This document shows positions 1-12,424 of a stretch of 12,424 nt of DNA, piece after piece. The first letter of the stretch is position 1, and each line of letters starts with the position of its first letter. Source of the stretch: a virus (Duplodnaviria; Heunggongvirae; Uroviricota; Caudoviricetes); the IMG/VR virus record IMGVR_UViG_2737471831_000003, positions 1-12,424 of that record, one strand, 5' to 3'. A program made the translations under genes and the position numbers. The notes under the pieces were generated by a model that saw only the letters and a list, made by a program, of their open reading frames with translations, had not been told where the DNA came from and ran no database searches.

Positions 1-1131
1 TCACCATGCTACTTTGCTCCATCCTTTGCCTCGGTCGTCATGATAACGATCGGTTTGTTGTTGTGTTTTGTGACCAAGTAGTTTTTGTGTATCTAACCCC
101 TGTTCTTTATACAGGCGTTCAGATAACGACCTTTGCTCATGGAATGTTGCAGGTGAACCTTTCCCCCAGTCAATTCCTGCTAAGTCCCTCGCTTTACTGA
201 AATTCATCGTCAATGTGTTAGATTTAACCTGTGTTCCACGTTCAGCCTGTGAAGTCGTACGGGAAAAATGTACAAGGTATGGGCTGACTGCATAGTCACG
301 GCAGCGGGCTACTACATCGCGTAAACTCCAGTTAATCGCATTGAGGTGAAGAGAAAGAGGAATTGCGATTTTGCTCCCGGTCTTTTCCTGAATGACGTGA
401 AGATGATCCTCCCAAATATCACTAAATTTCATTTTGGATATATCTCCCAAACGCTGCCCAGTGACTAAAGCTAGGAGCATGGCATTTCCCATGTAACGAT
501 GAGTGGCGTCTGCGATATCGAATATTTTTTGCCATTCTTCCAGGCTGAGGCGTTGACGGGTAATTTTTCTTCTTGGTTGTTTAGTGGCTAATGCTGGGTT
601 ATAGCCAGGCGGAACTTCGCCGTAATGCTGTGCTTCCTTAAACACATCGATCAATACAGACCTTACGACTTGGGCCATTCTCGGCTGTCCCGCAGAGATA
701 TACTCTTCAAGCAATTGTGCTATATCTCTGACATCAACGGCCGAGATCAACTTCATTCCTGCTCTTTCCCTGAGCAAGGATACTGGTTTGGCTTTCTGCT
801 TATAGGTGTTGAGTCTTATATCACCACTTTTCAGCCTATCGTCTTGGATAGCCTGGTAACGGTCTAACCATGTAGATGTTGTGATCGCTTTTCCTTTGCT
901 GGTTGCGATCCTGTCACTGATAGCCAGAATCTGCCGGGTTCTTTGTTCAGCCAGTCGAGTGTTGGCCTCAGTGGCAATAGCGATAGCTTCAGCTTCGTTT
1001 GTTCCCAAAGCATGGAATTTTCCTGTTACTGGATGCTTATACCGCCAATAGACTTTATTTACCTTTCGGCTATAAAGCGGATATAAGTTAGGGACTGAAA
1101 CATTATTCTTACGCGGTCTGGCTGCCATCAC
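1..1131 (-). CDS. int: Tyrosine recombinase, lambda Int-family phage integrase
   Basis: 376-aa ORF. By-eye alignment to lambda Int: N-terminal PNLY arm-binding region; catalytic region TFHEQRSLSERLY...LLGHK...RYHDDRG (lambda: TFHELRSLSARLY...LLGHK...QYRDDRG) with conserved His and Tyr-nucleophile context. Stop codon at positions 1-3; first codon GTG at 1131, ATG at 1128; 5' end overlaps xis by 23 nt as in lambda. Confidence 0.93.
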   Translation of the reverse strand: MMAARPRKNNVSVPNLYPLYSRKVNKVYWRYKHPVTGKFHALGTNEAEAIAIATEANTRLAEQRTRQILAISDRIATSKGKAITTSTWLDRYQAIQDDRLKSGDIRLNTYKQKAKPVSLLRERAGMKLISAVDVRDIAQLLEEYISAGQPRMAQVVRSVLIDVFKEAQHYGEVPPGYNPALATKQPRRKITRQRLSLEEWQKIFDIADATHRYMGNAMLLALVTGQRLGDISKMKFSDIWEDHLHVIQEKTGSKIAIPLSLHLNAINWSLRDVVARCRDYAVSPYLVHFSRTTSQAERGTQVKSNTLTMNFSKARDLAGIDWGKGSPATFHEQRSLSERLYKEQGLDTQKLLGHKTQQQTDRYHDDRGKGWSKVAW

Positions 1132-1354
1132 TCAAAATCCGTTGCAAAAGTAATGAGTCATTTTTCTTAATTACTGGTGTTACCAGCTCTCCAACTAACT
1201 CGGCGTCCTCACGCACTCGCCATAACCGGCCTTGTTTCATGGCCGGTGGACAAAATAAATTCTGCTTAGCATAACGACGCAATGTGGACACACTTGGAGG
1301 ATTACTTCTGTATTTTTCAGAAGCCCATTCTTCAAGAGTTAACATTTGAAGCAT
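1109..1354 (-). CDS. xis: Excisionase (lambda Xis-like)
   Basis: 81-aa ORF; LTLEEW...PPSVSTLRRYAKQNLFCPP.K.GR resembles lambda Xis LTLQEW...PRSLETVRRWVRECRIFPPPVKDGR. RBS AAGGTGA 6 nt upstream of ATG at 1354 (second in-frame ATG at 1345). Overlaps the int start. Confidence 0.85.
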   Translation of the reverse strand: MLQMLTLEEWASEKYRSNPPSVSTLRRYAKQNLFCPPAMKQGRLWRVREDAELVGELVTPVIKKNDSLLLQRILSDGSQTA

Positions 1355-1397
1355 ATGCGATCACCTTATTACTTCACTAACTGTTCAGTCTCTGCAT

Positions 1398-1700
1398 ATC
1401 GACCCTGCAAGGTCGATTAGTTTCTCCACAAAACAGAGAAGAGCACCTGTGGCCACAACTACCAGGATGGATTGGGTTATGAGCCCGTCGTCCGGTGATG
1501 CTCTTCTCTGTTTTGTAAAAAGGACGGTACCAGCCGGAAGCAAGGGTACAAGCTGGTACCGCCAGGACTACACACAGCATAAAGTTGTGGTTCCGGGGGC
1601 CTCCCGGTGCCTGGCGAAGGTTGCACACCAGGCGGGTGGGTATCCACAGAAGGTCGACTGTCAGCCTCAACCTTAACCCGCGTGCGCTGAGCCGCATTCA
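1398..1700. other. GC-rich, highly self-complementary intergenic element (candidate structured RNA or protein-binding site); function unknown
   Basis: Contains a perfect 18-bp inverted repeat, a perfect 9-bp inverted repeat (1526-1534 GGTACCAGC / 1552-1560 GCTGGTACC, 17-nt loop) and a 7-bp hairpin (1398-1404 ATCGACC / 1411-1417 GGTCGAT). ORFs called here translate to Arg/Pro/Gly/Cys-rich peptides typical of non-coding GC-rich sequence. Confidence 0.35.
1428..1516. repeat. Perfect 18-bp inverted repeat flanking a 53-bp spacer
   Basis: 1428-1445 ACAAAACAGAGAAGAGCA is the exact reverse complement of 1499-1516 TGCTCTTCTCTGTTTTGT; read directly from the sequence. Confidence 0.85.
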
Positions 1701-1816
1701 CCACAACGCTAAGGATTCTCTCTGGTTGAAAATACTTAGCTGTTATGTGCCTGTCTTTTCACCACTTCAGGCTCGGTGGTATCCTTTTAAGCCCGTATTC
1801 ATAAAAGGAAAATCAA

Positions 1817-2062
1817 ATGACTTTTGATGAAAAAGAACTTGATAATGCAATTAATAAAATCATCGTAACGTCGCTCTTTTCCTGTCTCAGCGACACTCAG
1901 CAGAAACAGTTCTACGAATCGGCTTTCAACATGATCGAGCGTTGTTGTTTCTGCGATGCCGACGAGTTACCTGAAAAAATCAGGAAACAGTTGGCTGATG
2001 CTCTTCGAGTGCGACTTTTTGACCAATTTTCTGAAATGTACTCTCCGAATTTGGACAAATAG
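1817..2062 (+). CDS. Hypothetical small protein (81 aa)
   Basis: ATG at 1817 preceded by AAGGA (1805-1809) at 7-nt spacing; helical-looking, non-repetitive translation; imperfect hairpin 2073-2096 shortly after the stop. The 3' end overlaps the convergent minus-strand ORF 1980-2255, so only one of the two may be real. Confidence 0.45.
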   Translation: MTFDEKELDNAINKIIVTSLFSCLSDTQQKQFYESAFNMIERCCFCDADELPEKIRKQLADALRVRLFDQFSEMYSPNLDK

Positions 2063-2255
2063 AAAAAGGCCATTTCCATTCAGGGTCTGATGGAAAGACT
2101 TCAGCCTGTTCCAAAGCACGGCGTAAAGAGAACACAACTCCAGCCATAATCTGATGTTTCCCATTGGTCCAGCTATCGCCGCTCTGAGCTACAGGAGCGG
2201 CTATGTCGTATGACCAAACGACTTCACCACTATTGTTTAAAATCTGGACTTTCAT
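1980..2255 (-). CDS. Hypothetical protein (91 aa), early-left operon position
   Basis: ATG at 2255 lies 9 nt downstream of the stop of the zinc-finger ORF (operon-like packing); GGAGG is 12 nt upstream, a long spacing. The C-terminal third overlaps the plus-strand ORF 1817-2062 and passes through the 2073-2096 hairpin. Confidence 0.35.
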   Translation of the reverse strand: MKVQILNNSGEVVWSYDIAAPVAQSGDSWTNGKHQIMAGVVFSLRRALEQAEVFPSDPEWKWPFSICPNSESTFQKIGQKVALEEHQPTVS

Positions 2256-2263
2256 TTTGTTCT

Positions 2264-2485
2264 TTAACCTCCAGATTTCCGCGCATCTAAAGGCGCATTC
2301 TCATTTGGTGTGAACTGAATAGTTGTGCTGATATTGATTAATGCCCCGACACACAAGACTACGCACTCAGAGCAGATAGCAACTTCATCTTTTCCGCCTT
2401 TGGCGATGATTTTTTTTGCCTGCAGCTCGTTTGCGCCACAAAACGAGCATGTGAAATAACGGTTCATTTGCGCTCTCTTACACAT
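2264..2485 (-). CDS. Small protein with ClpX-type C4 zinc-finger motif
   Basis: CSFCGANELQAKKIIAKGGKDEVAICSECVVLC matches the ClpX N-terminal zinc-binding domain pattern (CSFCGK...x18...ICDECVDLC). Likely start is the internal ATG at 2467 (67 aa; GAGAG 5 nt upstream) rather than 2485. Confidence 0.7.
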   Translation of the reverse strand: MCKRAQMNRYFTCSFCGANELQAKKIIAKGGKDEVAICSECVVLCVGALINISTTIQFTPNENAPLDARKSGG

Positions 2486-2564
2486 AGTATTTAACGAATC
2501 ATCTTGGACTTCATATGCCCCAGGCGGCTACTTCGTGGGCGTCCTGCCTGTTCATTGTTTTAAC

Positions 2565-2625
2565 ATCTTTAAGTTGTAATTTAGTTGTGGTTTTGAATAT
2601 TGTCAACAACTTTATGTGGTTTGAA
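2565..2625. promoter_or_regulatory. Putative OL operator/promoter cluster (AAGTTGT / ACAACTT heptamers)
   Basis: AAGTTGT at 2571-2577, AGTTGTG at 2583-2589 and ACAACTTTATG at 2606-2616; the same heptamers and the ACAACTTTATG motif recur in the cI-cro intergenic region. Lies between divergent genes (zinc-finger ORF leftward, TerB/BRCT ORF rightward). Confidence 0.4.
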
Positions 2626-2669
2626 CGAGTAGCCAAGGAGTGCAAGGATTATCAAAAAAAGGAGGTTGT

Positions 2670-3560
2670 ATGGAAGACGCGCTTTACGCTTTTAATTACA
2701 CACAGAACCGGGACAAGTTATTTGCTAACTTGATTAGCATAATTGATGGAATCATTGCAGATGGAGTTGTCCGTGAAGAGGAGGTTCTTTACTTAGATAC
2801 ATGGTTACTTGAAGCAAAGCAGATTATCAATAATGGAGTTATAAAAAGTCTATCAGCACGGGTGTCGGATATTCTTGCGGATGGAATAATCACATCAGAA
2901 GAACGTGATGACCTTAAAAATAGCCTTCTCCAAATACAGAGGGAAATTCTTGATATCCCTGAAATTGATTTTTACTCCAAGGATGTAGATGTCCATTTAC
3001 TTAATGGACTATGTAAAGGATTAATTGCTGATCGGAACTTAACTCAAGAAGAAATAAGATATCTTAATTGGTGGCTTGAGCAAAATGGAGCTTTGAAGAA
3101 CAACTACCCAGGAAAAAAACTTTATGCACTTGTAAAGGAAATTCTTAAAGATGGGGTTATTACTGAAGATGAGAGTTTAACTCTACATAAGGCATTAGTA
3201 GACTTCACAGGATGTGACTTGGAAAGTGGGGTGGTGGATGGTTTGGCGACCAGGCTGCCTATTGATGTAGGGGCTTCGATAGAGTTAGAGGGTAAAACCT
3301 ATTGTCTTACAGGCACTTTTGTTGCAGGAAAGAGAGCCGTAGTTGAAAATTTGATTAAAAATGCTGGTGGGAACATCAGTAGTGGAATTACTCAAAAGTT
3401 GGATTTTTTAGTAATTGGGACGCTTTCCTCCCGTGATTGGAAATTCTCAAGTCACGGAAGGAAGATCGAAAAAGCTATATCTTATAGGGATGATAATGGT
3501 GCAAAACTTAAAATTATTTCTGAAGAAATGCTTTTCGATGCATTACCAAGTTCGCGATGA
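2670..3560 (+). CDS. Protein with four TerB-like helical repeats and a C-terminal BRCT domain (296 aa)
   Basis: ATG at 2670 preceded by AGGAGG (2660-2665); in-frame GTG at 2640. Four repeats of the form h-ADG-h-h-T/R-x-E-E (IADGVVREEEVLYL, LADGIITSEERDDL, IADRNLTQEEIRYL, LKDGVITEDESLTL) resemble TerB/DjlA-N motifs. C-terminus GKTYCLTGTFVAGKRAVVENLIKNAGGNISSGITQKLDFLVIG...KLKIISEEMLFDAL matches the BRCT pattern of NAD-ligase C-termini. AT-rich; 3' end overlaps the cI 3' end by 18 nt. Confidence 0.8.
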   Translation: MEDALYAFNYTQNRDKLFANLISIIDGIIADGVVREEEVLYLDTWLLEAKQIINNGVIKSLSARVSDILADGIITSEERDDLKNSLLQIQREILDIPEIDFYSKDVDVHLLNGLCKGLIADRNLTQEEIRYLNWWLEQNGALKNNYPGKKLYALVKEILKDGVITEDESLTLHKALVDFTGCDLESGVVDGLATRLPIDVGASIELEGKTYCLTGTFVAGKRAVVENLIKNAGGNISSGITQKLDFLVIGTLSSRDWKFSSHGRKIEKAISYRDDNGAKLKIISEEMLFDALPSSR

Positions 3561-4229
3561 CCAGAATACCCTACCTATAACATGAATTCTGGCTCGTCTA
3601 TCTTCAAAGGTGAGTATTTCATCTGGGTACTCATCTTTGTTGAAGCTTCTAAGAATCAAGCCACCGTCAGGTAAGTTGATAAGTATTTTAACCCTTAGCA
3701 ATACACCATCTCGTACGGCATAAAGATCGCCATCACGAATAGGAACGGTTTGAGAAATATCAACGGCAACAAGATCTCCATTATTGAGAACCGGTAATAA
3801 ACTGTTCCCCCATATTTTTACGATCTTGGCATTAGATGCACATACGCCAGATTTTCTCAAATCTGCTCTTCTTAACGGAAACCAGTCAATAGCTGATTCA
3901 ACTATTTCAGCCAGACATCCGTTACCTGCCGATAACTCGACATCTAAAACAGGAATGTTTACGAAAATATCGGGGTCTAATGCGGTGCTTTCTGCTTCTT
4001 TTACAACAAGATCAGGTATGGATGCGTTGTCTTCAATACCAAGTTGTAACCACTTTTGTGATACACCTAAAACTTTTGCAATTTCTTTAATTTTGCGCGG
4101 TTGTAGAGTTTCGCCATTCTCTATTTTGGCTACAGATTGTTGTGAAAGTCCAATTTTTTCAGCTAGTTGAGCTTGGCTCATGCCAGCTTTCTCTCTACCT
4201 ATCTTTAATCGTTCTGCCAGTGTTTTCAC
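3543..4229 (-). CDS. cI: Prophage repressor, cI/LexA-type (XRE HTH + S24 peptidase domain)
   Basis: 228 aa; N-terminal HTH (MSQAQLAEKIGLSQQSVAKIENGE); C-terminal S24-like autocleavage domain (GNSLLP...GDLVAVD...LLRVKIL). GTG start at 4229 with GAGGG 7 nt upstream; divergent from the cro-like gene. Confidence 0.9.
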   Translation of the reverse strand: MKTLAERLKIGREKAGMSQAQLAEKIGLSQQSVAKIENGETLQPRKIKEIAKVLGVSQKWLQLGIEDNASIPDLVVKEAESTALDPDIFVNIPVLDVELSAGNGCLAEIVESAIDWFPLRRADLRKSGVCASNAKIVKIWGNSLLPVLNNGDLVAVDISQTVPIRDGDLYAVRDGVLLRVKILINLPDGGLILRSFNKDEYPDEILTFEDRRARIHVIGRVFWSSRTW

Positions 4230-4254
4230 AACATATCCCTCTCTTTTTTGATGA

Positions 4255-4345
4255 GGTTACAACTTTATGTTTTAGCTTTCCAACACCTAAAAGTTGTGAT
4301 AAAAGTTGTTAATGTTGTATTCTTGCAACTCGTAACAACTTAACT
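4255..4345. promoter_or_regulatory. Putative OR operator/promoter region (pRM/pR) between cI and cro
   Basis: ACAACTT at 4259-4265 and 4335-4341; AAGTTGT at 4291-4297 and 4303-4309; these are the same half-sites as in the 2565-2625 cluster. Sits in the 135-bp divergent intergenic region. Confidence 0.5.
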
Positions 4346-4364
4346 ACCTAAAAAGGAGAAAGCT

Positions 4365-4613
4365 ATGACACCTGAGCAATTAGCCTTATCGGAGGCAATC
4401 GCTCTGGCTGGTGGTCAATCAGAATTGGCTCGGAAGCTCACAGCCAGCAGCGGTCATTTAGTAAAGCAACAACATGTCTGGAACTGGTTGAACAGAGAAA
4501 AGCGTCCCCCTGCAAAGCTCTCGATATTCATTGAAAAGACCACTGGCATATCAAAAGAAAAATTACGTCCAGATATTTTTCAAAAGATTAAAGATTCATC
4601 AGATGAAAAGTAA
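4365..4613 (+). CDS. Cro/YdaS-like small HTH regulator
   Basis: 82 aa; AGGAG at 4354-4358, 6 nt before the ATG; GGQSELARKL...V.NWL.......P......IEK.TG.SKEKLRPDIF pattern as in YdaS/Cro-type proteins; first gene rightward of the repressor. Confidence 0.8.
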   Translation: MTPEQLALSEAIALAGGQSELARKLTASSGHLVKQQHVWNWLNREKRPPAKLSIFIEKTTGISKEKLRPDIFQKIKDSSDEK

Positions 4614-4635
4614 CCACAGTTTTAAGGAGATAGCC

Positions 4636-5187
4636 GTGGGTAAGCATCACTGGAAAGTAGAAAAACAGCCTAAGTGGTACGTGAAAGCTGTCAGAAAAAC
4701 TATCGCAGCGTTGCCGGGGGGTTACGCTGAAGCTGCTGACTGGCTGGATGTAACAGAGAACGCATTATTTAACCGCCTTCGTGCCGATGGCGATCAGATT
4801 TTCCCGCTGGGATGGGCAATGATTTTGCAACGTGCTGGTGGAACTCACTTCATTGCTGACGCTGTGGCGCAGTCTGCAAATGGCGTCTTTGTGTCTCTTC
4901 CTGATATCGAGGATGTGGACAACGCCGATATCAACCAACGCCTGCTGGAGGTCATTGAACAGATCGGCAGTTATTCAAAACAGATTCGTTCAGCAATTGA
5001 AGACGGTGTAGTTGAACCGCATGAGAAGACAGCAATTAACGATGAGCTGTACCTCTCAATTTCGAAGCTGCAGGAGCATGCAGCACTGGTCTACAAAATC
5101 TTTTGCGTTTCAGAAAGTAGTGACGCCCGCGAGTGTGCAGCTCCGGGCGCCGTGGCGTGTCGTGACTGTGGAGAAACTAACGCATGA
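4636..5187 (+). CDS. Hypothetical regulatory protein in the cII position, possibly YdaT-family
   Basis: Strong RBS AAGGAG (4624-4629) 6 nt before in-frame GTG at 4636; alternative ATG at 4603 overlaps the cro stop. The family assignment is from memory of YdaS-YdaT pairs and is tentative. Confidence 0.55.
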
Positions 5188-5522
5188 ACAGTTTAACAAC
5201 ACACTACCGTCGCTCGCAACTGATTGCGCTTCCGGTTCCGGGTGGAAAAGCGAAGGTGGAGTATTGCTATGCAGTGAATGTACCAGGTGACAGGGAAATT
5301 GTAACCCACAGCTTTGCAGAGTGGGCTGTGGGTGATTTCAACCGGCAGAAGGAGACAGTCCTTTGCGACAAGTTAACCGCTGGTTCAAAGATCACTACGG
5401 AGTGCCCGTCAGAGTCATTCGTTGGGAACCGGAAACACAACGGGTTATCTACCTCCGCGAAGGTTATGAGCATGAATGCTTCAGTCCGCTCGAACAGTTT
5501 CGTCGTAAATTCAGGGAAATAG
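5184..5522 (+). CDS. Hypothetical protein (112 aa, ATG-initiated); C-terminal half doubtful
   Basis: ATG at 5184 overlaps the upstream stop (ATGA coupling). The N-terminal ~55 aa look protein-like, but the C-terminal half is Ser/Asn-rich and low-complexity, while an alternative frame over the same DNA looks more protein-like. Confidence 0.3.
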
Positions 5523-5542
5523 AGGTCGGTCATGAGCACTAA
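5363..5542 (+). CDS. Alternative small ORF (59 aa, TTG start), frame-2
   Basis: AAGGAG at 5349-5354 lies 8 nt before TTG at 5363. Translation [59 protein letters not shown] is charged and non-repetitive; stop at 5540-5542 overlaps the start of the replication gene. Confidence 0.35.
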
Positions 5543-6473
5543 ATTAACCGGCTATGTATGGGATGGTTGCGCTGCATCAGGCATGAAGTTATCCAGCGTG
5601 GCAATTATGGCCCGCCTGGCTGATTTCAGTAATGACGAAGGTGTGTGCTGGCCATCAATTGAAACCATTGCCCGTCAGATTGGCGCGGGGATGAGTACCG
5701 TCAGAACGGCTATCGCACGGCTGGAAGCAGAAGGCTGGTTAACGCGTAAGGCGCGTCGCCAGGGTAACCGCAATGCGTCGAATGTTTATCAGCTTAACGT
5801 TGCGAAGCTTCAGGCAGCGGCATTTTCTCAACTGTCAGATTCTGACCCGTCAAAATCTGACGCATCAAAATCTGACCCGTCAAAATTTGATGCGTCGAAA
5901 TCTGGGAAAAAAGCGGGTTTTCACCCGTCAGAATCTGGTGGGGATCCGTCAGTAAAATCAAAACATGATCCGTCAGATAAAAAACCTTCTCGTCCGGACG
6001 CTTCGCAACCGGACACGCAGAAGGCTGAACAGGATTTTTTAACTCGCCATCCTGATGCGGTTGTATTCAGCCCTAAAAAGCGCCAGTGGGGAACGCAGGA
6101 TGATTTGACCTGCGCACAGTGGCTCTGGAAAAAAATCATCGCCCTGTACGAGCAGGCCGCCGAATGTGACGGCGAGGTGGTTCGTCCCAAAGAACCGAAC
6201 TGGACAGCCTGGGCAAACGAAATTCGCCTGATGTGTGTGCAGGATGGTCGTACTCACAAACAAATCTGCGAGATGTACAGCCGCGTCAGCCGCGATCCGT
6301 TCTGGTGCCGTAACGTGCTCAGCCCGTCGAAGCTGCGGGAAAAATGGGATGAGCTTTCCCTGCGCTTATCGCCGTCCGTCAGCACGTACACCGAAAAACG
6401 CGAAGACCCGTACTTCAAAGCCAGTTACGACAACGTGGACTACAGCCAGATCCCGGCAGGATTCAGGGGGTGA
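5532..6473 (+). CDS. Phage replication initiation protein (N-terminal winged-HTH, low-complexity linker, DnaT-like C-terminus)
   Basis: 313 aa; GAGGT 5 nt before the ATG. N-terminal HTH typical of phage replication initiators (SIETIARQIGAGMSTVRTAIARLEAEGWL); central SDPSK-type linker encoded by the iteron array; C-terminus ends ...NWTAWANEIRL...QIPAGFRG, resembling (from memory) the C-terminal domain of primosomal protein DnaT (...IPPGFRG). Confidence 0.8.
   Translation: MSTKLTGYVWDGCAASGMKLSSVAIMARLADFSNDEGVCWPSIETIARQIGAGMSTVRTAIARLEAEGWLTRKARRQGNRNASNVYQLNVAKLQAAAFSQLSDSDPSKSDASKSDPSKFDASKSGKKAGFHPSESGGDPSVKSKHDPSDKKPSRPDASQPDTQKAEQDFLTRHPDAVVFSPKKRQWGTQDDLTCAQWLWKKIIALYEQAAECDGEVVRPKEPNWTAWANEIRLMCVQDGRTHKQICEMYSRVSRDPFWCRNVLSPSKLREKWDELSLRLSPSVSTYTEKREDPYFKASYDNVDYSQIPAGFRG
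5831..5985. repeat. Iteron-like direct repeat array (15-bp period), candidate replication origin
   Basis: Four consecutive 15-bp units at 5842-5901 (CTGACCCGTCAAAAT, CTGACGCATCAAAAT, CTGACCCGTCAAAAT, TTGATGCGTCGAAAT), plus degenerate CCGTCAG-containing copies to about 5980 and an A-rich stretch (5976-5985). Confidence 0.6.
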
Positions 6474-6475
6474 TC

Positions 6476-6964
6476 ATGAGTCTTTTGAATGAAGTTCAGA
6501 AATTCATTGAAGCCCATCCGGGGTGTACTTCCGGAGACATTGCGGATGCTTTTGCAGGTTATTCACGGCAGCGCGTTCTGCAGTCTGCAAGCAAGTTACG
6601 TCAGAGTGGGCGTGTGGCTCACCGTTGTGAAGGAGATACACGCAGACATTTCCCGCGCCTGACTGAGAGAGCGCAGGAGCCGGAACCACAACCAGTTCGT
6701 GAAACCAGACCTGTGCGCAATTTCTATGTCGGCACTAACGATCCCCGGGTGATTTTGTGCCTGACCCGCCAGGCTGAAGAACTGGAGTCAAGGGGCTTAT
6801 ACCGTCGTGCTGCAACCGTGTGGATGGCGGCATTCCGTGAAAGCCACTCCCAGCCAGAACGAAACAATTTTCTGGCGCGTCGTGAGCAGTGCTTACAGAA
6901 AAGCAGCAAGCGCGCTGCATCGGGTGAAGAGTGGTATCTGTCAGGGAATTACGTGGGGGCGTAA
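6476..6964 (+). CDS. PerC-like transcriptional regulator domain protein
   Basis: ATG at 6476 with GGGGG 5 nt upstream (GTG at 6470 also in frame). C-terminal AEELESRGLYRRAATVWMAAF resembles the PerC/Pch motif (A..LE.RGLWRRAA..W), recalled from memory. Confidence 0.55.
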   Translation: MSLLNEVQKFIEAHPGCTSGDIADAFAGYSRQRVLQSASKLRQSGRVAHRCEGDTRRHFPRLTERAQEPEPQPVRETRPVRNFYVGTNDPRVILCLTRQAEELESRGLYRRAATVWMAAFRESHSQPERNNFLARREQCLQKSSKRAASGEEWYLSGNYVGA

Positions 6965-7290
6965 TGACGACGTTAACTCAATGCCAGCAGCAGGTGCTGG
7001 ATATGCTGATTTCTTATCAGAAAGAGCGTGGCTTTCCGCCAACCAATCAGGAGGTGGCAACCATGCTGGGATACCGTTCGGTGAATGCAGCGGTGGAGCA
7101 TCTTCGCGCACTGGAGAAAAAAGGCGTCATCACGATAAAGCGTGGCGTGGCACGGGGGATAACGCTTCATACCGCTGTGAAGGACGACGACAGCGAGGCG
7201 GTCGGGATTATCCGCGCACTGCTTGCCGGTGAGGAAAACGCCAGGCTGCGTGCAGCCCACTGGTTACATGAGAGGGGCCTGAAAGTATGA
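6964..7290 (+). CDS. LexA N-terminal DNA-binding-domain-only protein (no S24 peptidase domain)
   Basis: ATG at 6964 overlaps the upstream stop (TAATG). QQQVLDMLISYQKERGFPPTNQEVATMLGYRSVNAAVEHLRALEKKGVITIKRGVARGITL aligns closely with E. coli LexA residues ~8-70 ([61 protein letters not shown]). The protein ends after ~108 aa with no catalytic Ser/Lys domain. Confidence 0.8.
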   Translation: MTTLTQCQQQVLDMLISYQKERGFPPTNQEVATMLGYRSVNAAVEHLRALEKKGVITIKRGVARGITLHTAVKDDDSEAVGIIRALLAGEENARLRAAHWLHERGLKV

Positions 7291-7676
7291 AGCTGATTCT
7301 GCCTTTTCCGCCCAGCGTGAACACGTACTGGCGACACCCCAACAAAGGGGCGTTTGCTGGTAAGAGCCTGATAAGCGCGGCGGGGCGCAAATTCCAGAGC
7401 GCGGCGTGTGCAGCAATAGTTGAGCAGTTACGTCGTCTGCCAAAACCAACGTCGGCACCTGCTTCAGTGGAGATCGTGTTGTTTCCACCGGATAACCGGA
7501 TCCGCGATCTGGACAACTATAACAAGGCGCTGTTTGACGCCCTGACCCACGCGGGTGTGTGGGAGGACGACAGTCAGGTGAAAAGAATGCTGGTGGAGTG
7601 GGGGCCGGTTATCCCGGAAGGGAAGGTCGAGATCACTATCAGTAAGTACGAGAAAACGGCGGGTGCAGCCGCCTGA
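7287..7676 (+). CDS. rusA: Holliday-junction resolvase RusA
   Basis: 129 aa; LPFPPSVNTYWR and RDLDNYNKALFDALTHAGVWEDDSQV match the RusA motifs ([38 protein letters not shown]). ATG overlaps the upstream stop (ATGA). Confidence 0.92.
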   Translation: MKLILPFPPSVNTYWRHPNKGAFAGKSLISAAGRKFQSAACAAIVEQLRRLPKPTSAPASVEIVLFPPDNRIRDLDNYNKALFDALTHAGVWEDDSQVKRMLVEWGPVIPEGKVEITISKYEKTAGAAA

Positions 7677-7695
7677 TTAAGAGGAGAAACGAAGT

Positions 7696-8493
7696 ATGAA
7701 TAATCTGATGGTCATTGATGGTATTGAAGTTCGTCGTGATGCTTATGGGCGTTACAGCCTGAACGATCTGCACAGGGCTGCCGGTTCTCAGGATAAGCAT
7801 AAGCCTGCATTTTGGCTCCGCAATGAGCAAACCGAACGTTTAATAAGCGAGTTGCAGATTTGCAACTCGGTCAATATAGAGCCAGTTAACGTTATTCGTG
7901 GCGGAAATAACCAGGGGACGTATGTCTGCAAAGAACTGGTGTATGCCTATGCAATGTGGATCAGTCCGTCATTCCATCTGAAGGTGATCCGTACTTTCGA
8001 TATGGTAACCAGCGCACCGGAAAAATTATCCGGGCAGGCTGCTGACAAGATGCAGGCTGGTGTGATTCTGCTGGACTTTATGCGTCGGGAGTTAAACCTG
8101 TCTAACTCATCTGTGCTTGGGGCCTGTCAGAAACTCCAGGAGGCTGTTGGTTTACCGAATCTGGCACCGCGCTATGCCATTGATGCCCCTGCTGATGCAC
8201 ACGATGGCTCAAGTCGCCCGACACTGTCACTGAGTGCACTGCTGAAACAGTATGGTATCCGCCTTACGGCTAATCAGGCATATCACCAGATGGTGAAACT
8301 GGGGATCGTCGAACAGCGCGAACGATACAGCCGTACCGCGATTAATAACATCAAAAAATTCTGGTCGCTGACGGCGAAAGGCTGCATGTTCGGCAAGAAC
8401 ATCACCAGTCCGGCAAATCCGCGTGAGACGCAGCCGCATTTCTTCGAATCCCGATTCCCTGAGCTGTTAAAGCTGCTCGATACCGTTCATTGA
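7696..8493 (+). CDS. KilA-N domain protein
   Basis: 265 aa; GAGGAG RBS at 7681-7686. N-terminal ~100 aa (IDGIEVRRDAYGRYSLNDLHRAAG...PAFWLRNEQT...YVCKELVYAYAMWISPSFHLKVIRTF) fit the KilA-N DNA-binding domain pattern. Confidence 0.8.
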   Translation: MNNLMVIDGIEVRRDAYGRYSLNDLHRAAGSQDKHKPAFWLRNEQTERLISELQICNSVNIEPVNVIRGGNNQGTYVCKELVYAYAMWISPSFHLKVIRTFDMVTSAPEKLSGQAADKMQAGVILLDFMRRELNLSNSSVLGACQKLQEAVGLPNLAPRYAIDAPADAHDGSSRPTLSLSALLKQYGIRLTANQAYHQMVKLGIVEQRERYSRTAINNIKKFWSLTAKGCMFGKNITSPANPRETQPHFFESRFPELLKLLDTVH

Positions 8494-8494
8494 G

Positions 8495-9490
8495 GTGACC
8501 GTGAGAGCGCTACTGACCCCTGAGATTGCCCCGCGTATGGGGATCGTATTGTTCAGACCCGGTTCAGAGCTGATGCCCCTGTTTATGCAGGGGCGTGTCC
8601 TGCTGGAGCCTGAGCCGGAGCGTTATTCATCTTTCGCCAGTGGTGCCGTTCCGGCGGCATCACAACCGCTGGCGGATGATCCTGCCGTTCGGGCCGTGTT
8701 CCGCAATGAGGCAGTGATCCGTCGTGCTGGTGGCGTGGAATGTCTTGAAAGCTGGTTACTTCGTGAAAAAGGCTGCCAGTGGCCTCATTCCGACTGGCAC
8801 AGCGAGAACATGACAACAATGCGACACGCTCCGGGCGCAATCCGTCTGTGCTGGCACTGCGATAACCAGCTGCGCGATCAGTTCACGGAACGGCTGGAAT
8901 CAATGGCAACGGATAACTGTGCCCGCTGGGTGTTGTCTGTTGTGCGTCGGGATCTCGGTTTTGATGATAGTCACGTTGTGACAATGCCGGAACTGTGCTG
9001 GTGGCTGATTCGTAATGACCTGGCGGATGCCTTACCGGAAAGTGCAGCCCGTAAGGCACTGAGATTACCGAGGCCTGTTGTGCCGTCTGTCACCCGGGAA
9101 AGTGACCTTGTGCCTTCGGTTCCTGCCACCAGCATCATCCAGGATAAAGCGAAAAAGGTGCTGGCGCTGAAAGTGGATCCGGAGTCGCCGGAGTCTTTTA
9201 TGTTACGCCCAAAACGTCGCCGCTGGGTTAATGAAAAGTACACGCGCTGGGTTAAGACACAGCCGTGTGCATGTTGTGGAAAGCCTGCTGATGATCCCCA
9301 CCACCTGATAGGTCACGGTCAGGGTGGAATGGGAACAAAAGCGCATGACCTCTTTGTGTTGCCTTTGTGCAGAAAGCATCACGACGAGCTGCATGCGGAT
9401 ACCGTGGCATTTGAAGAGAAGTATGGCTCCCAGCTGGAGCTGATATTTCGTTTTATCGATCGTGCGCTGGCAATTGGCGTGCTGGCCTGA
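8495..9490 (+). CDS. DUF968-like phage protein with C-terminal Cys/His-rich (HNH-like) motif
   Basis: 331 aa; likely start GTG at 8501 (GAGG 5 nt upstream) rather than 8495. C-terminal CACCGKPADDPHHLIGHGQGG...HDLFVLPLCRKHHDELH is a zinc-binding/HNH-like signature; the position after rusA/KilA-N matches DUF968 genes in Qin-type prophages (from memory). Confidence 0.65.
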   Translation: MTVRALLTPEIAPRMGIVLFRPGSELMPLFMQGRVLLEPEPERYSSFASGAVPAASQPLADDPAVRAVFRNEAVIRRAGGVECLESWLLREKGCQWPHSDWHSENMTTMRHAPGAIRLCWHCDNQLRDQFTERLESMATDNCARWVLSVVRRDLGFDDSHVVTMPELCWWLIRNDLADALPESAARKALRLPRPVVPSVTRESDLVPSVPATSIIQDKAKKVLALKVDPESPESFMLRPKRRRWVNEKYTRWVKTQPCACCGKPADDPHHLIGHGQGGMGTKAHDLFVLPLCRKHHDELHADTVAFEEKYGSQLELIFRFIDRALAIGVLA

Positions 9491-9507
9491 TTTTGTGGAG
9501 AAAGTTG

Positions 9508-9855
9508 ATGCGTGATATGTATGAAGTATTGGACCGCTGGGGAGCATGGGCTGCAGCAGATAACAGTGGCGTGGACTGGCAGCCGATAGCTGCAGGCTTC
9601 AAGGGGCTTTTACCTCATGGCAAAAAGTCCCGGATTCAGTGTGATGATGACGAAGGCATTATGATAGACAGTTGTGTGGCTCGGTTGAGAAAGTATAAAC
9701 CAGAGGAATATGAGCTAATCATAGCTCACTTTGTCATTGGTATCTCATTACGCACTATTGCCAAGAAGAGAAGATGTTCAGATGGCACAGTTAGGAAAAA
9801 ATTGCAGACTGCCTTGGGGTTTGTTGAAGGATGTATTTGTTTGATTGAGTTCTAA
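9508..9855 (+). CDS. Q: Late-gene antiterminator Q (phage 82/QuuD-like family)
   Basis: ATG at 9508 with GGAG 7 nt upstream (an upstream TTG at 9493 is also in frame). VLDRWGAWAA...DWQPIAAGFKGLL...SRIQCDDDEGIM resembles E. coli QuuD as recalled; Cys pairs consistent with a Q zinc finger; last early-right gene before the lysis cassette. Confidence 0.75.
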   Translation: MRDMYEVLDRWGAWAAADNSGVDWQPIAAGFKGLLPHGKKSRIQCDDDEGIMIDSCVARLRKYKPEEYELIIAHFVIGISLRTIAKKRRCSDGTVRKKLQTALGFVEGCICLIEF

Positions 9856-9883
9856 AAAGAATGAGGCGTAAGCCTCATTCTTT
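9856..9883. terminator. Bidirectional intrinsic terminator between Q and the convergent membrane-protein gene
   Basis: Perfect 12-bp stem (9856-9867 AAAGAATGAGGC / 9872-9883 GCCTCATTCTTT) with GTAA loop, A-run on one side and T-run on the other. The minus-strand gene's stop codon (9875-9877) lies in the stem. Confidence 0.75.
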
Positions 9884-10444
9884 ATCTTTAATTATAAGTT
9901 TCGATTTTTCATCATGCATTTTGTCTATCATAAAATACATACCTAATGCCGTTGTGTATATAATGTTGCATATGGTACTTAAATAAATAAACAAAAGTAA
10001 TGATTTCACTAGTGGATATGATGAAAGGTGTAATTCCTTGATGCTTGCACTGGTTAGTTGAAGTGCTCCTCCAACGAAATACAGCGCGATGCTCATAAAC
10101 GCTAAATAACCAAATAGATAAGTGAGGAATTTACGCCTTGTAAGTTTTTTACCTTTTAATACCGGAGGTATGCCATGCATAACTTCATCCATACCATCCT
10201 TACTGAAGGTTGCAACTGCAGCCATAGATGCAATGTAAAAACCAGATAGTATTTGAAGTATCCCGTTTACTAAAGACACAAGACTATCCTTCCCGAGAAG
10301 TGAGATGGTTTTCGGTAAGTAATAGATGGATAAAGTAATAATTGCAGCAGTGAAAATGGGTAAAACCCAGTCAAAAAATCGCTTCTCAGGATGCTTTATG
10401 CGTAGGTAGTCTATAGGTGTAAAAACCTTAGATAAAACATACAT
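9875..10444 (-). CDS. Small integral membrane protein, 4 predicted TM helices (189 aa)
   Basis: Start ATG at 10444 with AGGAGG 5 nt upstream (the longer ORF to 10537 would overlap the upstream gene). Four hydrophobic segments: FFDWVLPIFTAAIITLSIYYL, LVSLVNGILQILSGFYIASMAAVATF, FLTYLFGYLAFMSIALYFVGGAL, LVKSLLLFIYLSTICNIIYTTALGMYFMI. AT-rich. Confidence 0.75.
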   Translation of the reverse strand: MYVLSKVFTPIDYLRIKHPEKRFFDWVLPIFTAAIITLSIYYLPKTISLLGKDSLVSLVNGILQILSGFYIASMAAVATFSKDGMDEVMHGIPPVLKGKKLTRRKFLTYLFGYLAFMSIALYFVGGALQLTSASIKELHLSSYPLVKSLLLFIYLSTICNIIYTTALGMYFMIDKMHDEKSKLIIKDKE

Positions 10445-10476
10445 ATATGCCTCCTTTTGACAGGTTTTCCATGCCT

Positions 10477-11412
10477 TCACTTTAACATAAAGTTTTGCAT
10501 TTTTGCGAGAAGTTCTTCGTGAAATGCTGTTTGGCAAACGGCAATTGTTGATGCCAACACTGCTTTTTCACGTTGTGCCAATTGTGCTGTTGCGAGTTCC
10601 TGTAAGCTCATTTCTTTTCCGATGGAAACAAGATCTGATGAAACGCGTTTATTTTTGTCTTTATAAGAAATTCTTAACATTGTATACTTTCTACCACGAA
10701 GTTTGTCATATGCAGACTTAATCGCCTTAATTGCACCCTCTCCGCGACGTATTTTTGTTGATAGCTTTAGTGTTTCTTCTTCAACCATTACTGTGCCATC
10801 ATCATCTAAAGAGTTATCTTTAAAGCGACGAGTAGCAGTAAGTCCACATAAATAACCAGTGGATAGAGATTGCTCAAGTGTTGTTGCAGCCAAAAAATCA
10901 ATGTCGAAAATAGGTCTGCACTTAAGTTCTTTTTTCCCTCCTGAACGGATAAAGGAAAAATTATTTTCTCGCAGGAAATAAGTTAAAGCTTGGGCTAATA
11001 AACCTCTGGTAATGCCCGGAACTTCTTCTAAAATTGCCTCATAACAATCTTGGAATGATGAGTCGCTCGGTCTTTTTTTGATAAGCACATGAGCAGAGTA
11101 CCCCATACCTTCATCATTTTGCTTTTTCTCAATTCTGGTTTCACCAGTTTTTATGTTGGAAAAGGCGGGATCAGAAGCATCTTTATTTATATATTGAAAA
11201 AGCAATTTCAGGTAATTTTCATCGTCTTTTATGGATAGCAATCTTATGACAGAACGTCCTTTGTTTAATTCGTAAACAGCTTCTCCTTTGTTATAGCGAT
11301 TTTTTAAAACAGGAATACAGTTTACTAAAGGCATGTCAGGTGCGTCATTAGGATACTTCTTTAAAGTAACCTGGCATTTGATCATGAAACGTTCATTATC
11401 TCCCAAGAGCAT
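10477..11412 (-). CDS. Hypothetical soluble protein (311 aa) with a possible Pol-beta-type nucleotidyltransferase signature
   Basis: ATG at 11412 with AAGGA 6 nt upstream; AT-rich. IRSGGKKELKCRPIFDIDFL (residues ~156-175) fits the hG[GS]-x9-13-DhDh pattern; an acidic cluster SLDDDG lies ~30 residues downstream. No family recognised with confidence. Confidence 0.7.
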   Translation of the reverse strand: MLLGDNERFMIKCQVTLKKYPNDAPDMPLVNCIPVLKNRYNKGEAVYELNKGRSVIRLLSIKDDENYLKLLFQYINKDASDPAFSNIKTGETRIEKKQNDEGMGYSAHVLIKKRPSDSSFQDCYEAILEEVPGITRGLLAQALTYFLRENNFSFIRSGGKKELKCRPIFDIDFLAATTLEQSLSTGYLCGLTATRRFKDNSLDDDGTVMVEEETLKLSTKIRRGEGAIKAIKSAYDKLRGRKYTMLRISYKDKNKRVSSDLVSIGKEMSLQELATAQLAQREKAVLASTIAVCQTAFHEELLAKMQNFMLK

Positions 11413-11472
11413 ATCTGTTCCTTATACGAGCACTAATACTGATTGCTGTTTTTAGTTCAGCAGAACCAAAGG

Positions 11473-11501
11473 TTAACTGATTGTGCTTGATAGTATATAT
11501 T
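11473..11501 (+). promoter_or_regulatory. Putative late promoter (pR'-like)
   Basis: TTAACT (11473-11478), 17-bp spacer, TATATT (11496-11501), in an AT-rich region about 240 bp upstream of the holin and about 70 bp upstream of a plus-strand terminator hairpin. Sequence-only prediction. Confidence 0.3.
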
Positions 11502-11566
11502 TTTCACTAACGCGTACGCAAAAAGTATTGTATCGTGTTAAGAGTGGTTACTTCGCCACACAACTT

Positions 11567-11596
11567 AAACCCGCCGCTGAGCGGGTTTTGTCGTTT
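11567..11596 (+). terminator. Putative tR'-like intrinsic terminator upstream of the lysis genes
   Basis: 8-bp stem (11567-11574 AAACCCGC / 11581-11588 GCGGGTTT) with 6-nt loop CGCTGA, followed by TGTCGTTTCT. Confidence 0.5.
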
Positions 11597-11740
11597 CTGG
11601 GCCTAGGGATTCGTTGGGCCTGGTCTATCCCGCAGTTATCCATTGGCTCGGCTTCTTTGACGTTTCCGCTTCTGATTTGCGGTACATGATGTTCCCTCAA
11701 TTTGCACCTGCTGTATCAGCGAGGTGAGAGATAACTACAA

Positions 11741-12067
11741 ATGCCTCATAACCCAAATACCTGGCTGGAGTTGGTCCAGAGCTGGTGGCGTGGAGACACA
11801 CCGCTGGGCGCAGTGATTATGTCGATTGTTATGGCTGGTTTACGTATTGCCTATTTTGGCGGTGGTGGCGGCTGGAAGCGAAAAACACTCGAAATTCTAC
11901 TCTGTGGCGCTCTGACGCTGACTTTTGCATCCGCTCTTGAGTATGTCGGATGGCCTAAATCACTATCTGTTGCCATTGGTGGTGGGGTGGGGCTGATCGG
12001 TGTCGATGCTATTCGTGGGGCTGCAATGAGAGTAATCGGTAACAAGTTTGGTGGCTCTAAGGAGTAA
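11741..12067 (+). CDS. S: Holin, lambda S-like (class I)
   Basis: 108 aa with three hydrophobic segments and a charged C-terminus, similar in size and hydropathy to lambda S; stop 3 nt before the endolysin start. Confidence 0.8.
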   Translation: MPHNPNTWLELVQSWWRGDTPLGAVIMSIVMAGLRIAYFGGGGGWKRKTLEILLCGALTLTFASALEYVGWPKSLSVAIGGGVGLIGVDAIRGAAMRVIGNKFGGSKE

Positions 12068-12070
12068 TTT

Positions 12071-12424
12071 ATGCAGGTACTAAATTCCCAGCGTAAAGCT
12101 TTCCTCGATATGGTGGCATGGTCAGAAGGAACGGATAACGGGCGACAACCGACACGTAACCACGGTTATGATGTTATTGTTGGCGGCGAACTGTTTACTG
12201 ATTACTCCGATCACCCTCGCAAACTTGTCACGCTAAACCCCAAACTCAAATCAACAGCCGCCGGGCGTTATCAGCTTCTTTCACGCTGGTGGGATGCTTA
12301 CCGTAACCAGCTTGGTTTGAAAGACTTTTCCCCCAAAAGCCAGGACGCAGTGGCATTGCAGCAGATTAAAGAGCGTGGTGCTTTACCGATGATTGATCGC
12401 GGTGATATGATCCTACCCACGTAA
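12071..12424 (+). pseudogene. R: Endolysin R (lambda-type lytic transglycosylase), truncated after ~112 codons
   Basis: AAGGAG 6 nt before the ATG. The first ~112 residues are near-identical to lambda R as recalled (NSQRKAFLDM.AWSEGTDNGRQ.TRNHGYDVIVGGELFTDYSDHPRKLVTLNPKLKST.AGRYQLLSRWWDAYR.QLGLKDFSPKSQDAVALQQIKERGALPMIDRGD); the frame then reads MILPT-stop, encoded by IS-end sequence. Lambda R is 158 aa. Confidence 0.85.
12408..12424. mobile_element. Terminal inverted repeat of an IS3-family element (IS3 IRR-like) at the window edge
   Basis: TGATCCTACCCACGTAA matches the outer end of the IS3 right inverted repeat as recalled (TGATCCTACCCACGTAATATGGACACAGGCC...). The element body lies beyond the window. 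Confidence 0.6.

Follow-up and report, generated by a model that had tools for sequence, protein, structure and literature searches.

A conserved RNA element lies at the start of the leftward early operon in the virus sequence analyzed here, positions 1 to 12,424 of the IMG/VR record IMGVR_UViG_2737471831_000003. This whole stretch of 12,424 nucleotides is called the window in the following. Judged by its sequence, the window is an e14-like lambdoid prophage, and the block under study, minus strand, about positions 1398-1780, is the DNA that is annotated as the gene ymfH in Escherichia coli K-12. The sequence analyses characterize this block as a non-coding, strongly folded RNA region on the minus strand of a lambda-like prophage. 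Our interpretation, held with moderate confidence, is that lambdoid prophages of the e14/SfV/ST64B type carry it in their leftward early (pL) operon as a cis-encoded RNA module, with a function that we infer below.

From 5' to 3' on the minus strand, the element consists of an upstream hairpin (Hup), the hairpin H0, a multi-branch core, a linker, the terminator T1, a long hairpin (LH), the conserved sequence GGAGAAAC, a small hairpin (SH) and the ribosome binding site of the next gene. The features are:

1747-1780, minus strand: upstream hairpin Hup (stem 1761-1780) with the conserved tail GAAAAGACAGGCAC; 5' boundary of the conserved element
1708-1740, minus strand: H0, a 13-bp imperfect hairpin 5' of the STnc100-like core
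1584-1707, minus strand: multi-branch domain assigned to the STnc100/PasD superfamily; the closing helix P1 is formed by 1700-1707 with 1584-1591
1562-1583, minus strand: conserved single-stranded linker UUUAUGCUGUGUGUAGUCCUGG (also given as UUUAUGCUGUGUGUAGUC and UGCUGUGUGUAGUC)
1517-1563, minus strand: intrinsic terminator T1, with the stem at 1523-1563, followed by CC and by UUUUU at 1517-1521
1421-1523, minus strand: long hairpin LH, about 100 nt, with two apical hairpins
1474-1487, minus strand: apical hairpin of LH, CGGGCUCAUAACCC, with 14-nt identity to positions 29-42 of the E. coli tRNA-fMet (metZ)
1398-1417, minus strand: small hairpin SH, -11 kcal/mol, located after GGAGAAAC (1420-1427) and upstream of the xis ribosome binding site

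The modules are separable. In phage phiES15 the core is present with its own terminator but LH is missing, a Mixta prophage combines LH with T1 and lacks the core, and phage mEp460 has a different core subtype.

A folded RNA of the minus strand

The earlier note, which was made from the letters of this DNA alone, had drawn attention to the block because of its inverted repeats. The perfect 18-bp repeat that it described is located at 1428-1445 and 1499-1516; the arms are 100% complementary and are separated by 53 nt. This is the longest perfect inverted repeat of the window when spacers of up to 100 nt are allowed, compared with 8-11 bp in 40 shuffled windows, and it had thus rightly been called far beyond chance. 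A second repeat had been placed correctly, but its length of 9 bp was an underestimate: it comprises 10 bp (1525-1534 and 1552-1561), and 13 bp when it is folded with G·U pairs. It is part of the T1 stem. The hairpin described at 1398-1417 is present as a 10-nt palindrome of 90%. The GC content was 0.53-0.60 over 1426-1725 and 0.35-0.48 in the neighboring DNA, in agreement with the description of the block as GC-rich.

Folding of both strands of 1390-1745 yielded -155 kcal/mol for the minus strand (z = -6.3) and -135 kcal/mol for the plus strand (z = -3.3). This is in line with a structured RNA, one of the two possibilities that had been raised for the block. The RNA is the leftward transcript, i.e., the minus strand, as is indicated by covariation and by strand-specific G·U pairs.

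Conservation and covariation of the long hairpin

The 18-bp repeat is contained in LH. In its basal helix, 1428-1447 pair with 1497-1516 without interruption (20 pairs), and pairing of the T1 U-run with GGAGA (1423-1427) can extend the helix to as many as 25 pairs. LH begins 1-2 nt past a terminator U-run almost always, and in about 78 of 85 further loci it directly follows one. It is present in a single copy per phage, is absent from HK022 and is not found beside canonical STnc100 genes.

The set of homologues was assembled from 120 viral contigs that were retrieved via the T1/LH junction, from 12 true homologues among species-representative genomes, and from about 80 further viral contigs that were found through the apical motif of LH. 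The pattern scan of the species-representative genomes was loose and gave 106 matches, only these 12 of which were true homologues. The loose pattern also matched dozens of contigs of three metagenome-assembled genomes (MAGs) of rumen Selenomonadaceae (RGIG9261, RGIG6591 and RGIG9201; loci L130-L233). These matches imply a multi-copy repeat that contains CYTTTTTMCANAANAGANAAGRG and that was unrelated to the phage element by blastn.

A covariance model of LH (R1) reached 118 bits against the minus strand, compared with 35 bits against the plus strand. When 66 distinct variants were aligned with the model, pairs were formed in 95.6% of the cells, compared with 47-61% in slid controls. Changes on both sides were found in 12 pairs and 91 cells, and none of 500 shuffles matched the observed values. 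Examples of compensatory changes are G-C to C-G (45 versus 20 sequences), C-G to A-U (43 versus 16) and A-U to G-C (44 versus 19). The result was similar for a MAFFT alignment of 33 distinct variants, with 96.4% paired cells, both-side changes in four pairs and 47-60% pairing in slid controls. Whether substitutions are compensatory was a question that the earlier note had raised, and in LH both-side changes of this kind are present.

An alternative is that the inverted repeat acts as DNA, namely as a cruciform, as half-sites for a dimeric protein (a repressor, or an accessory site of Xis/Int), or as a recombination hotspot at a module boundary. The high sequence conservation of both arms fits this idea, as does the position of the element at a mosaic junction with differing genes on each side, and the window copy is itself recombinant within LH. 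The pattern of substitutions points in the opposite direction. The commonest variants break the symmetry of the DNA, yet they retain G·U pairs in the RNA: there were 263 G·U cells and only 17 A·C cells, and pairing amounted to 95.6% in the sense direction (minus-strand RNA) versus 84.1% in the antisense direction. Where both arms have changed, the changes are compensatory, including the flip of G-C to C-G in 20 of the 66 sequences. A dimer would have to bridge 53-80 bp and a variable insertion to contact both half-sites, which is implausible. Furthermore, the cI operator motif ACAACTT was not found in the element; its half-sites are common to the pL region (2560-2620) and the cI-cro region (4257-4345), and operators were present only there. 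Based on the strand-specific wobbles and the model scores, a DNA palindrome and a reading of the plus strand were therefore ruled out, and a function of the repeat as DNA in any of these forms is regarded as very unlikely. The suggestion of a site for a dimeric DNA-binding protein, which the earlier note had offered beside the RNA, is not sustained: the arms are not kept identical as DNA, and the changes, compensatory or wobble, preserve nothing but RNA pairing.

The perfect 18 bp of the window copy are unusual among the relatives of LH. This copy is a recombinant, with a left half of the SfV type (GAGCA) and a right half of the e14 type (UGCUC), an arrangement that is shared with E. coli NCTC9038. 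The SfV and the e14 types have one wobble pair each in LH; the recombination removes both and thereby generates the perfect repeat. Among 2791 matching E. coli records, two are at least 99% identical to the window copy.

No Rfam family matched LH, either at the gathering threshold or in the E-value scans, and no paper describing a small RNA (sRNA) or a structure at ymfH was found in the literature. By the alignments above, LH is classified as a conserved RNA structure with real covariation that is contained in no RNA database.

A hairpin is found at the position of SH also in the relatives, with unrelated sequences (GGCGG..., GCGGC..., GCCCC... or AACGCC...). Whichever gene follows, its Shine-Dalgarno sequence and AUG always come a few nt to about 30 nt after this hairpin.

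The terminator T1 and mapped transcript ends

T1 has a stem of 13 bp with -23 kcal/mol. A terminator consensus scanner missed it, because its loop is longer than 8 nt. The stem shows covariation, with GGUGCC/GGCACC in place of GGUACC/GGUACC. Unrelated GC-rich stems have taken its position in ST64B, Buttiauxella and phiES15, and CCUUUUU always follows them.

Transcript 3' ends of uninduced E. coli K-12 were taken from published Term-seq results (Adams et al. 2021, supplementary files). Three ends were mapped onto the element:

K-12 position 1201423, minus strand (window 1747, after Hup): present in all three conditions, the strongest end of the locus
K-12 position 1201257, minus strand (window 1580, four nt after P1): LB, optical density (OD) 0.4
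K-12 position 1201195, minus strand (window 1517, the last U of the T1 run): M63

The leftward RNA of uninduced K-12 thus has its 3' ends behind Hup, just past the core and in T1. No U-run follows the Hup block, and the end at 1201423 may result from termination or from processing. At T1, a GC-rich hairpin, a U-run and a 3' end within the U-run coincide, and T1 is a working terminator in vivo. Past T1, the Term-seq results contain neither 3' ends nor a Rho-termination region across LH and SH, and read-through is scarce in the uninduced state.

The core and its relation to STnc100

STnc100 and the sRNA PasD of enteropathogenic E. coli (EPEC) share ancestry and are located near Q and lysis genes (Zhu, Shabalina and Storz, 2026 preprint); PasD is Hfq-dependent (same preprint). 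A check with Rfam covariance models, which the earlier note had recommended, provided the lead to this superfamily. STnc100 (RF02076) matched 1514-1737 of the minus strand over the full length of the model (1-206), with 31.2 bits and E = 5e-5 in a 601-nt search. At the gathering threshold, Rfam gave nothing for the element in the window or in 10 related loci. Further sub-threshold matches, to mir-247, the hairpin ribozyme, DicF and ftsZ-DE, were dismissed (E >= 0.6).

Canonical STnc100 copies were retrieved with a published primer sequence and folded side by side with the window. The element has the same architecture, i.e., a UGGUG/CACCA closing helix, a GAAU junction, a terminal hairpin of the form CCGGG-AGGCA-CCCGG, a linker and an intrinsic terminator. 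In the core, the GAAU junction follows P1, then come internal hairpins, and the last hairpin is CCGGG-AGGCC-CCCGG at 1593-1607. In other genera its stem changes from CCGGG/CCCGG to GGUGG/CCACC, with the same AGGCA loop. P1 and the first hairpin covary between early-left and canonical STnc100 copies, with changes on both sides in 6 of 14 consensus pairs. The early-left cores fall into at least four subtypes. On the basis of shared structure and covariation, the core is assigned to a divergent early-left branch of the STnc100/PasD superfamily of prophage sRNAs. For its expression as a discrete, Hfq-associated sRNA of this kind, the K-12 ends at the boundary of the core and at T1 are indirect evidence only.

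Upstream of the core, the types of E. coli, SfV and phiES15 all retain Hup and its tail. The 45-nt block at 1740-1785 of the window, which contains Hup and GAAAAGACAGGCAC, was also observed with 95-97% identity in several Klebsiella phages (H55-H60) that do not have the remaining element. Other genera have a hairpin at the position of H0 with the unrelated sequence GAAAGCGCACUCC...GGAGUGCGCUCUC. A sigma-70-like match (AAGACA-17-TATTTT, about 1729-1757) was considered as an own promoter of the sRNA and rejected: it was not reported by the promoter scan, the start would fall inside the conserved H0, and the match is absent in other genera.

Downstream of the core, the linker sequence UUGCUGUGUGUAGUC is kept in nearly all variants, including the Mixta copy without the core. 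The linker is a candidate seed region of the sRNA. Within the window no target above chance was found for it; the best duplex had -28 kcal/mol, compared with a mean of -25 and a minimum of -30.8 for shuffled seeds.

The ymfH reading frame

As annotated, the region would encode a real small protein (YmfH, or "YfdP-like"). An ATG open reading frame (ORF) of 106 codons is indeed open in the window (1377-1697, minus strand), the gene is annotated in K-12 and in many phage records, and the ATG is kept in all 82 E. coli-type copies. However, none of the tests for coding function gave a signal. In the 82 copies the variable sites are distributed over the three codon positions as 21/15/24, without a bias. 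The ratio of synonymous to non-synonymous changes was 23:47 in the frame of the ORF versus 21:48 and 15:55 in the other two frames, and thus there is no synonymous excess. Frameshifting indels were present in 11 of 82 copies and in-frame stops in 7 of 71, and PGAP lists a frameshifted pseudogene in the nearest relative. Owing to 1-nt indels, the window ORF and K-12 ymfH have only a short middle stretch of residues in common, so that the two products differ in frame over most of their length. The translation is rich in Arg, Pro, Gly and Cys, a Pfam search of the ORF revealed no family, and the RNA helices explain all of the conservation.

According to these sequence comparisons, ymfH does not appear to be a genuine coding gene, and a protein product is extremely unlikely. 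The ORFs across the block, which the earlier note had called implausible, are spurious by the frame and codon tests and by the Pfam result. The same note had said that its idea would fall if the region were a fragment of a known gene. Formally the region is one, namely K-12 ymfH, but this gene tests as non-coding.

Distribution and prophage setting

Of 5426 complete E. coli genomes, 2782 carry the element, with identities of 90-99%. The median is one copy per genome and the maximum is four places, figures that match the number of prophages. With these numbers and a single copy in the window, a repeat derived from a miniature inverted-repeat transposable element or an insertion sequence was rejected. 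The element is also present in the phages SfV, SfII, SfIV and ST64B and partially in mEp460, cdtI, Stx2c phages, phiNP and phiES15; the homologues span about 10 enterobacterial genera. Two assemblies with other titles, "Chryseobacterium sp. 18061" (L161) and a "Geobacteraceae bacterium" MAG (L198), contain a prophage early region of the enterobacterial type with the element, which suggests contamination or mis-binning. A further viral contig (L044, 10502-10690) has Rfam matches to C4 antisense RNA and to isrK side by side, i.e., an immunity RNA of the P1/P7 type and an IsrK-like sRNA.

All annotated relatives have the element in the interval that separates the repressor/pL from the first early-left genes, and its distance to xis often amounts to kilobases. 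In SfV, ST64B, phiNP, mEp460 and most other relatives it lies directly upstream of other early-left genes, e.g., orf32/sb37. In the window it adjoins xis because prophages of the e14 type have no intervening genes. The comparison of gene orders thus identifies the element as a mark of the start of the early-left operon and not of xis specifically, and the link to xis in the window is incidental. The proposal of a cis-regulator of xis/int, contained in the earlier note, was given up for this reason.

The neighboring features of the window are:

1-1131, minus strand: int
1109-1354, minus strand: xis (Pfam Exc, E = 6e-12; xisE in a near-identical E. coli record), context and outside the conserved element
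about 1398-1780, minus strand: the element, between xis and the small early-left ORFs
1980-2255, minus strand: small ORF
2264-2485, minus strand: small ORF (73 amino acids; C4 zinc finger of the ClpX type, Pfam E = 1e-10), first of the genes behind pL
2495-2606, minus strand: probable pL (TTGACA-17-TAAATT, 10 of 12 matches), with operators at 2560-2620 and a conserved leader at 2495-2555
2640-3560, plus strand: gene of a BRCT-domain protein of 306 amino acids, convergent with the repressor gene
3543-4229, minus strand: cI-like repressor
4365-4613, plus strand: cro-like gene

Transcription across the element is likely to originate from the probable pL at 2495-2606. The ClpX-type zinc-finger protein and the BRCT protein are unusual occupants of an immunity region. 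A further observation concerns the segment 5109-5169 of the minus strand, which is antisense to a ymfL-like ORF (4531-5187). It is identical in 52 of 61 positions to K-12 at 1203751 (minus strand), where by far the strongest Term-seq 3' end of the e14 region is located, antisense to ymfL (1.4e7-5e7). This points to an abundant antisense RNA at ymfL that ends at a GCCCG...CGGGC hairpin.

The tip of the long hairpin and the initiator tRNA

The tip is the most conserved sequence of LH, with GGGCUCAUAACCC in 43 of the 66 distinct variants. The longest common substring of the tip and metZ is 14 nt, a length that was reached by none of 2000 shuffles of the element. It spans three G-C pairs and the anticodon loop CUCAUAA. 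One explanation would be that LH is a trans-acting RNA, or one that binds ribosomes or a protein, with a tip that mimics the anticodon stem-loop of tRNA-fMet and a helix that serves as a stalk. As a decoy or sensor, its partners could be tRNA-fMet-cleaving PIN toxins of the VapC type, IF3 together with the 30S P site, or methionyl-tRNA synthetase (MetRS). The conservation of the tip across genera is in favor of such a mimic, and so is a genome-wide over-expression screen, in which a K-12 ymfH clone was among the prophage-derived triggers of the RcaT toxin of retron-Sen2. K-12 ymfH (6070-6381 of the e14 locus, L003) corresponds to about 1391-1705 of the window, and the clone would express exactly the RNA that bears LH, while a non-existent protein hardly explains the result. 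With ymfH apparently non-coding, the active agent of the retron trigger may be the structured RNA, and an RNA-based reading can thus be offered for this published result.

On the other side, the comparison was made post hoc and with one tRNA among about 45, and only three of the five anticodon-stem pairs are present. The equivalent of tRNA position 37, universally a purine in tRNAs, is U in 16 of the 66 variants, one variant has a different loop, and the loop in K-12 is UUAAUAA. ARAGORN found no tRNA or tmRNA gene in the window. A tRNA-fMet mimic is therefore considered unlikely; the resemblance may be due to chance or convergence. Quite improbable, too, is the bolder idea that LH represents an unrecognized class of phage RNA, a decoy or sensor of the tRNA-fMet loop in trans or, more broadly, an anti-defense or defense-triggering RNA; if true, it would explain the triggering of retron-Sen2 by the "ymfH" clone. 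A retron msr-msd as the identity of the element itself was rejected: no ORF resembling a reverse transcriptase adjoins it (the neighbors are xis, int and small ORFs), and there was no Rfam match to a retron.

Proposed mechanism

In the lysogen, T1 would act like tL1 of lambda and halt basal leftward transcription, which would insulate the early-left genes, in the window xis-int. Termination at T1 would also release a stable structured sRNA of about 230 nt, with a 3' hairpin and a U-tail of the kind that binds Hfq. Upon induction, transcription from pL would pass T1. The e14 genes, including ymfH, xisE and intE, are known to be induced by azidothymidine (AZT), with a mean of 36-fold over 17 genes and in dependence on LexA cleavage. 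In the read-through transcript LH would fold, and its approximately two turns of near-perfect double-stranded RNA would be an expected substrate of RNase III. This enzyme accommodates about 22 bp of double-stranded RNA; the helix of LH, with 20 contiguous pairs and up to 25, is of the required length of about 20-22 bp or more. LH is therefore a putative processing or insulating hairpin of the RNase III type. Cleavage would split the sRNA from the downstream mRNA. The mRNA would then begin with a 5' end shielded by SH, which would set its stability and translation.

In a different explanation, the structured RNAs of the element are responsible for factor-independent processive antitermination, comparable to put of HK022, or form a nut-like site, and would modify the RNA polymerase in such a way that it passes terminators located further downstream. 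An HK022-like cI is annotated in related phages, several early-left terminators would have to be overcome (t-up, T1 and some SH variants), and no N-like protein is evident among the small ORFs. In addition, the 3' arm of LH contains UGCUCUU, which we take to be the boxA core. However, LH is a single copy about 1 kb from pL and is located past T1, so that it could not help at T1. None is found downstream of pR or in HK022, and there is no similarity to the HK022 early region; a put pair was rejected on these grounds. A nut site of the lambda type was rejected as well: the boxA-like string is base-paired within the LH helix, the stem and loop of SH vary freely, in contrast to boxB, and an N-like protein is missing. 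Antitermination by the element thus appears quite unlikely.

A better candidate is a conserved leader of about 60 nt after pL (AACAGGCAGGACGCCCACGAAGUAGCCGCCUGGGGCAUAUGAAGUCCA.GAUGAUUCG; 2495-2555, minus strand). It is also present in SfV (L001, about 3405-3465) and in a further locus (L004, about 2600-2655), and the same leader follows pL in SfV, ST64B and phages with different operators. Using blastn, it was found, unannotated, in 51 phage records, including phages of Pantoea, Pectobacterium (ZF40), Yersinia, Klebsiella, Providencia and Aeromonas. It had no Rfam match in the E-value scan and no similarity to HK022. By its position and conservation, the leader is a candidate nut/put-like antitermination element.

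Several points weigh against the proposal of a cis-encoded module of the pL operon that comprises a terminator, an sRNA and a processing hairpin. The STnc100 match, with 31.2 bits, is below the gathering score of 47 bits. No convincing conserved promoter was found upstream of the sRNA domain that would account for the RNA in lysogens. With only five U residues and a loop of 15 nt, T1 does not resemble a typical strong terminator or a typical Hfq-binding tail. The passage of the polymerase through T1 after induction is not accounted for, and the cleavage step at LH is purely inferred. In most LH copies outside E. coli, a C·C or C·U mismatch interrupts the helix in its central part and is itself conserved. 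Moreover, 8 of the 25 pairs of the basal helix are invariant across genera, beyond what pairing needs, and the apical loop is also conserved in sequence. This conservation suggests a specific partner instead of a generic nuclease for double-stranded RNA.

A clearly covarying RNA of 100 nt has gone unannotated in the e14 prophage of K-12, in about half of the complete E. coli genomes, in serotype-converting phages of Shigella, in ST64B of Salmonella and in prophages of about 10 enterobacterial genera. Annotation pipelines label the element as a hypothetical or frameshifted protein, and its recognition removes the phantom gene ymfH. The terminator and the long hairpin constitute a modular unit where the early-left, recombination and excision genes are entered, a candidate control point for prophage induction and excision.

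Comparison with known systems

The copy of the tRNA-fMet loop recalls mimics of tRNA anticodon arms, such as the thrS operator, and phage counters to tRNA-targeting toxins: the top of the LH stem and the 7-nt loop are the copied part. In contrast to these mimics, LH shares a stem of only 3 bp, and the loop positions 37 and 38 vary.

With HK022 put, the element has in common that it is a conserved, protein-independent structured RNA in the early operons of a lambdoid phage, here one with an HK022-like repressor. However, put has about 70 nt and two stem-loops, is located just after the promoters and occurs as a left and right pair, whereas LH has about 100 nt, is present in a single copy about 1 kb from pL and past a terminator, and has no similarity to HK022.

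In the early-left control of lambda (tL1, the RNase III site in the N leader, and sib), a terminator and a long hairpin of the RNase III type are found in the pL transcript. The element has, by analogy, the same combination in a place that would allow the control of downstream early genes, including xis/int. There is no sequence similarity to lambda, and no N/nut system is evident in the phage that carries the element. The position of LH is upstream of the genes that would be regulated, and not downstream of int, as for sib, nor between nutL and N.

The closest similarity is to STnc100/PasD. Both have a multi-branch domain with a closing helix of 8-9 bp that contains UGGUG...CACCA, the GAAU junction, a first GC hairpin, a last hairpin CCGGG-AGGCN-CCCGG that abuts the closing helix, a single-stranded linker and a Rho-independent terminator, and both are carried in lambdoid prophages of Enterobacteriaceae. 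Differences are the score below the cut-off (31.2 versus 47) and the inner hairpins, linker and terminator, which are unrelated in sequence. The canonical STnc100 copies belong to the late region with Q, stx and lysis genes, whereas the element lies in the early-left region beside the immunity region, and like all of its relatives it is placed between the repressor/pL and the early-left genes, not in the late region. The superfamily is extended by this element from the late to the early-left region. The STnc100/PasD superfamily is known, though functionally uncharacterized; LH is a well-supported structured RNA motif with no entry in any database and a putative function.

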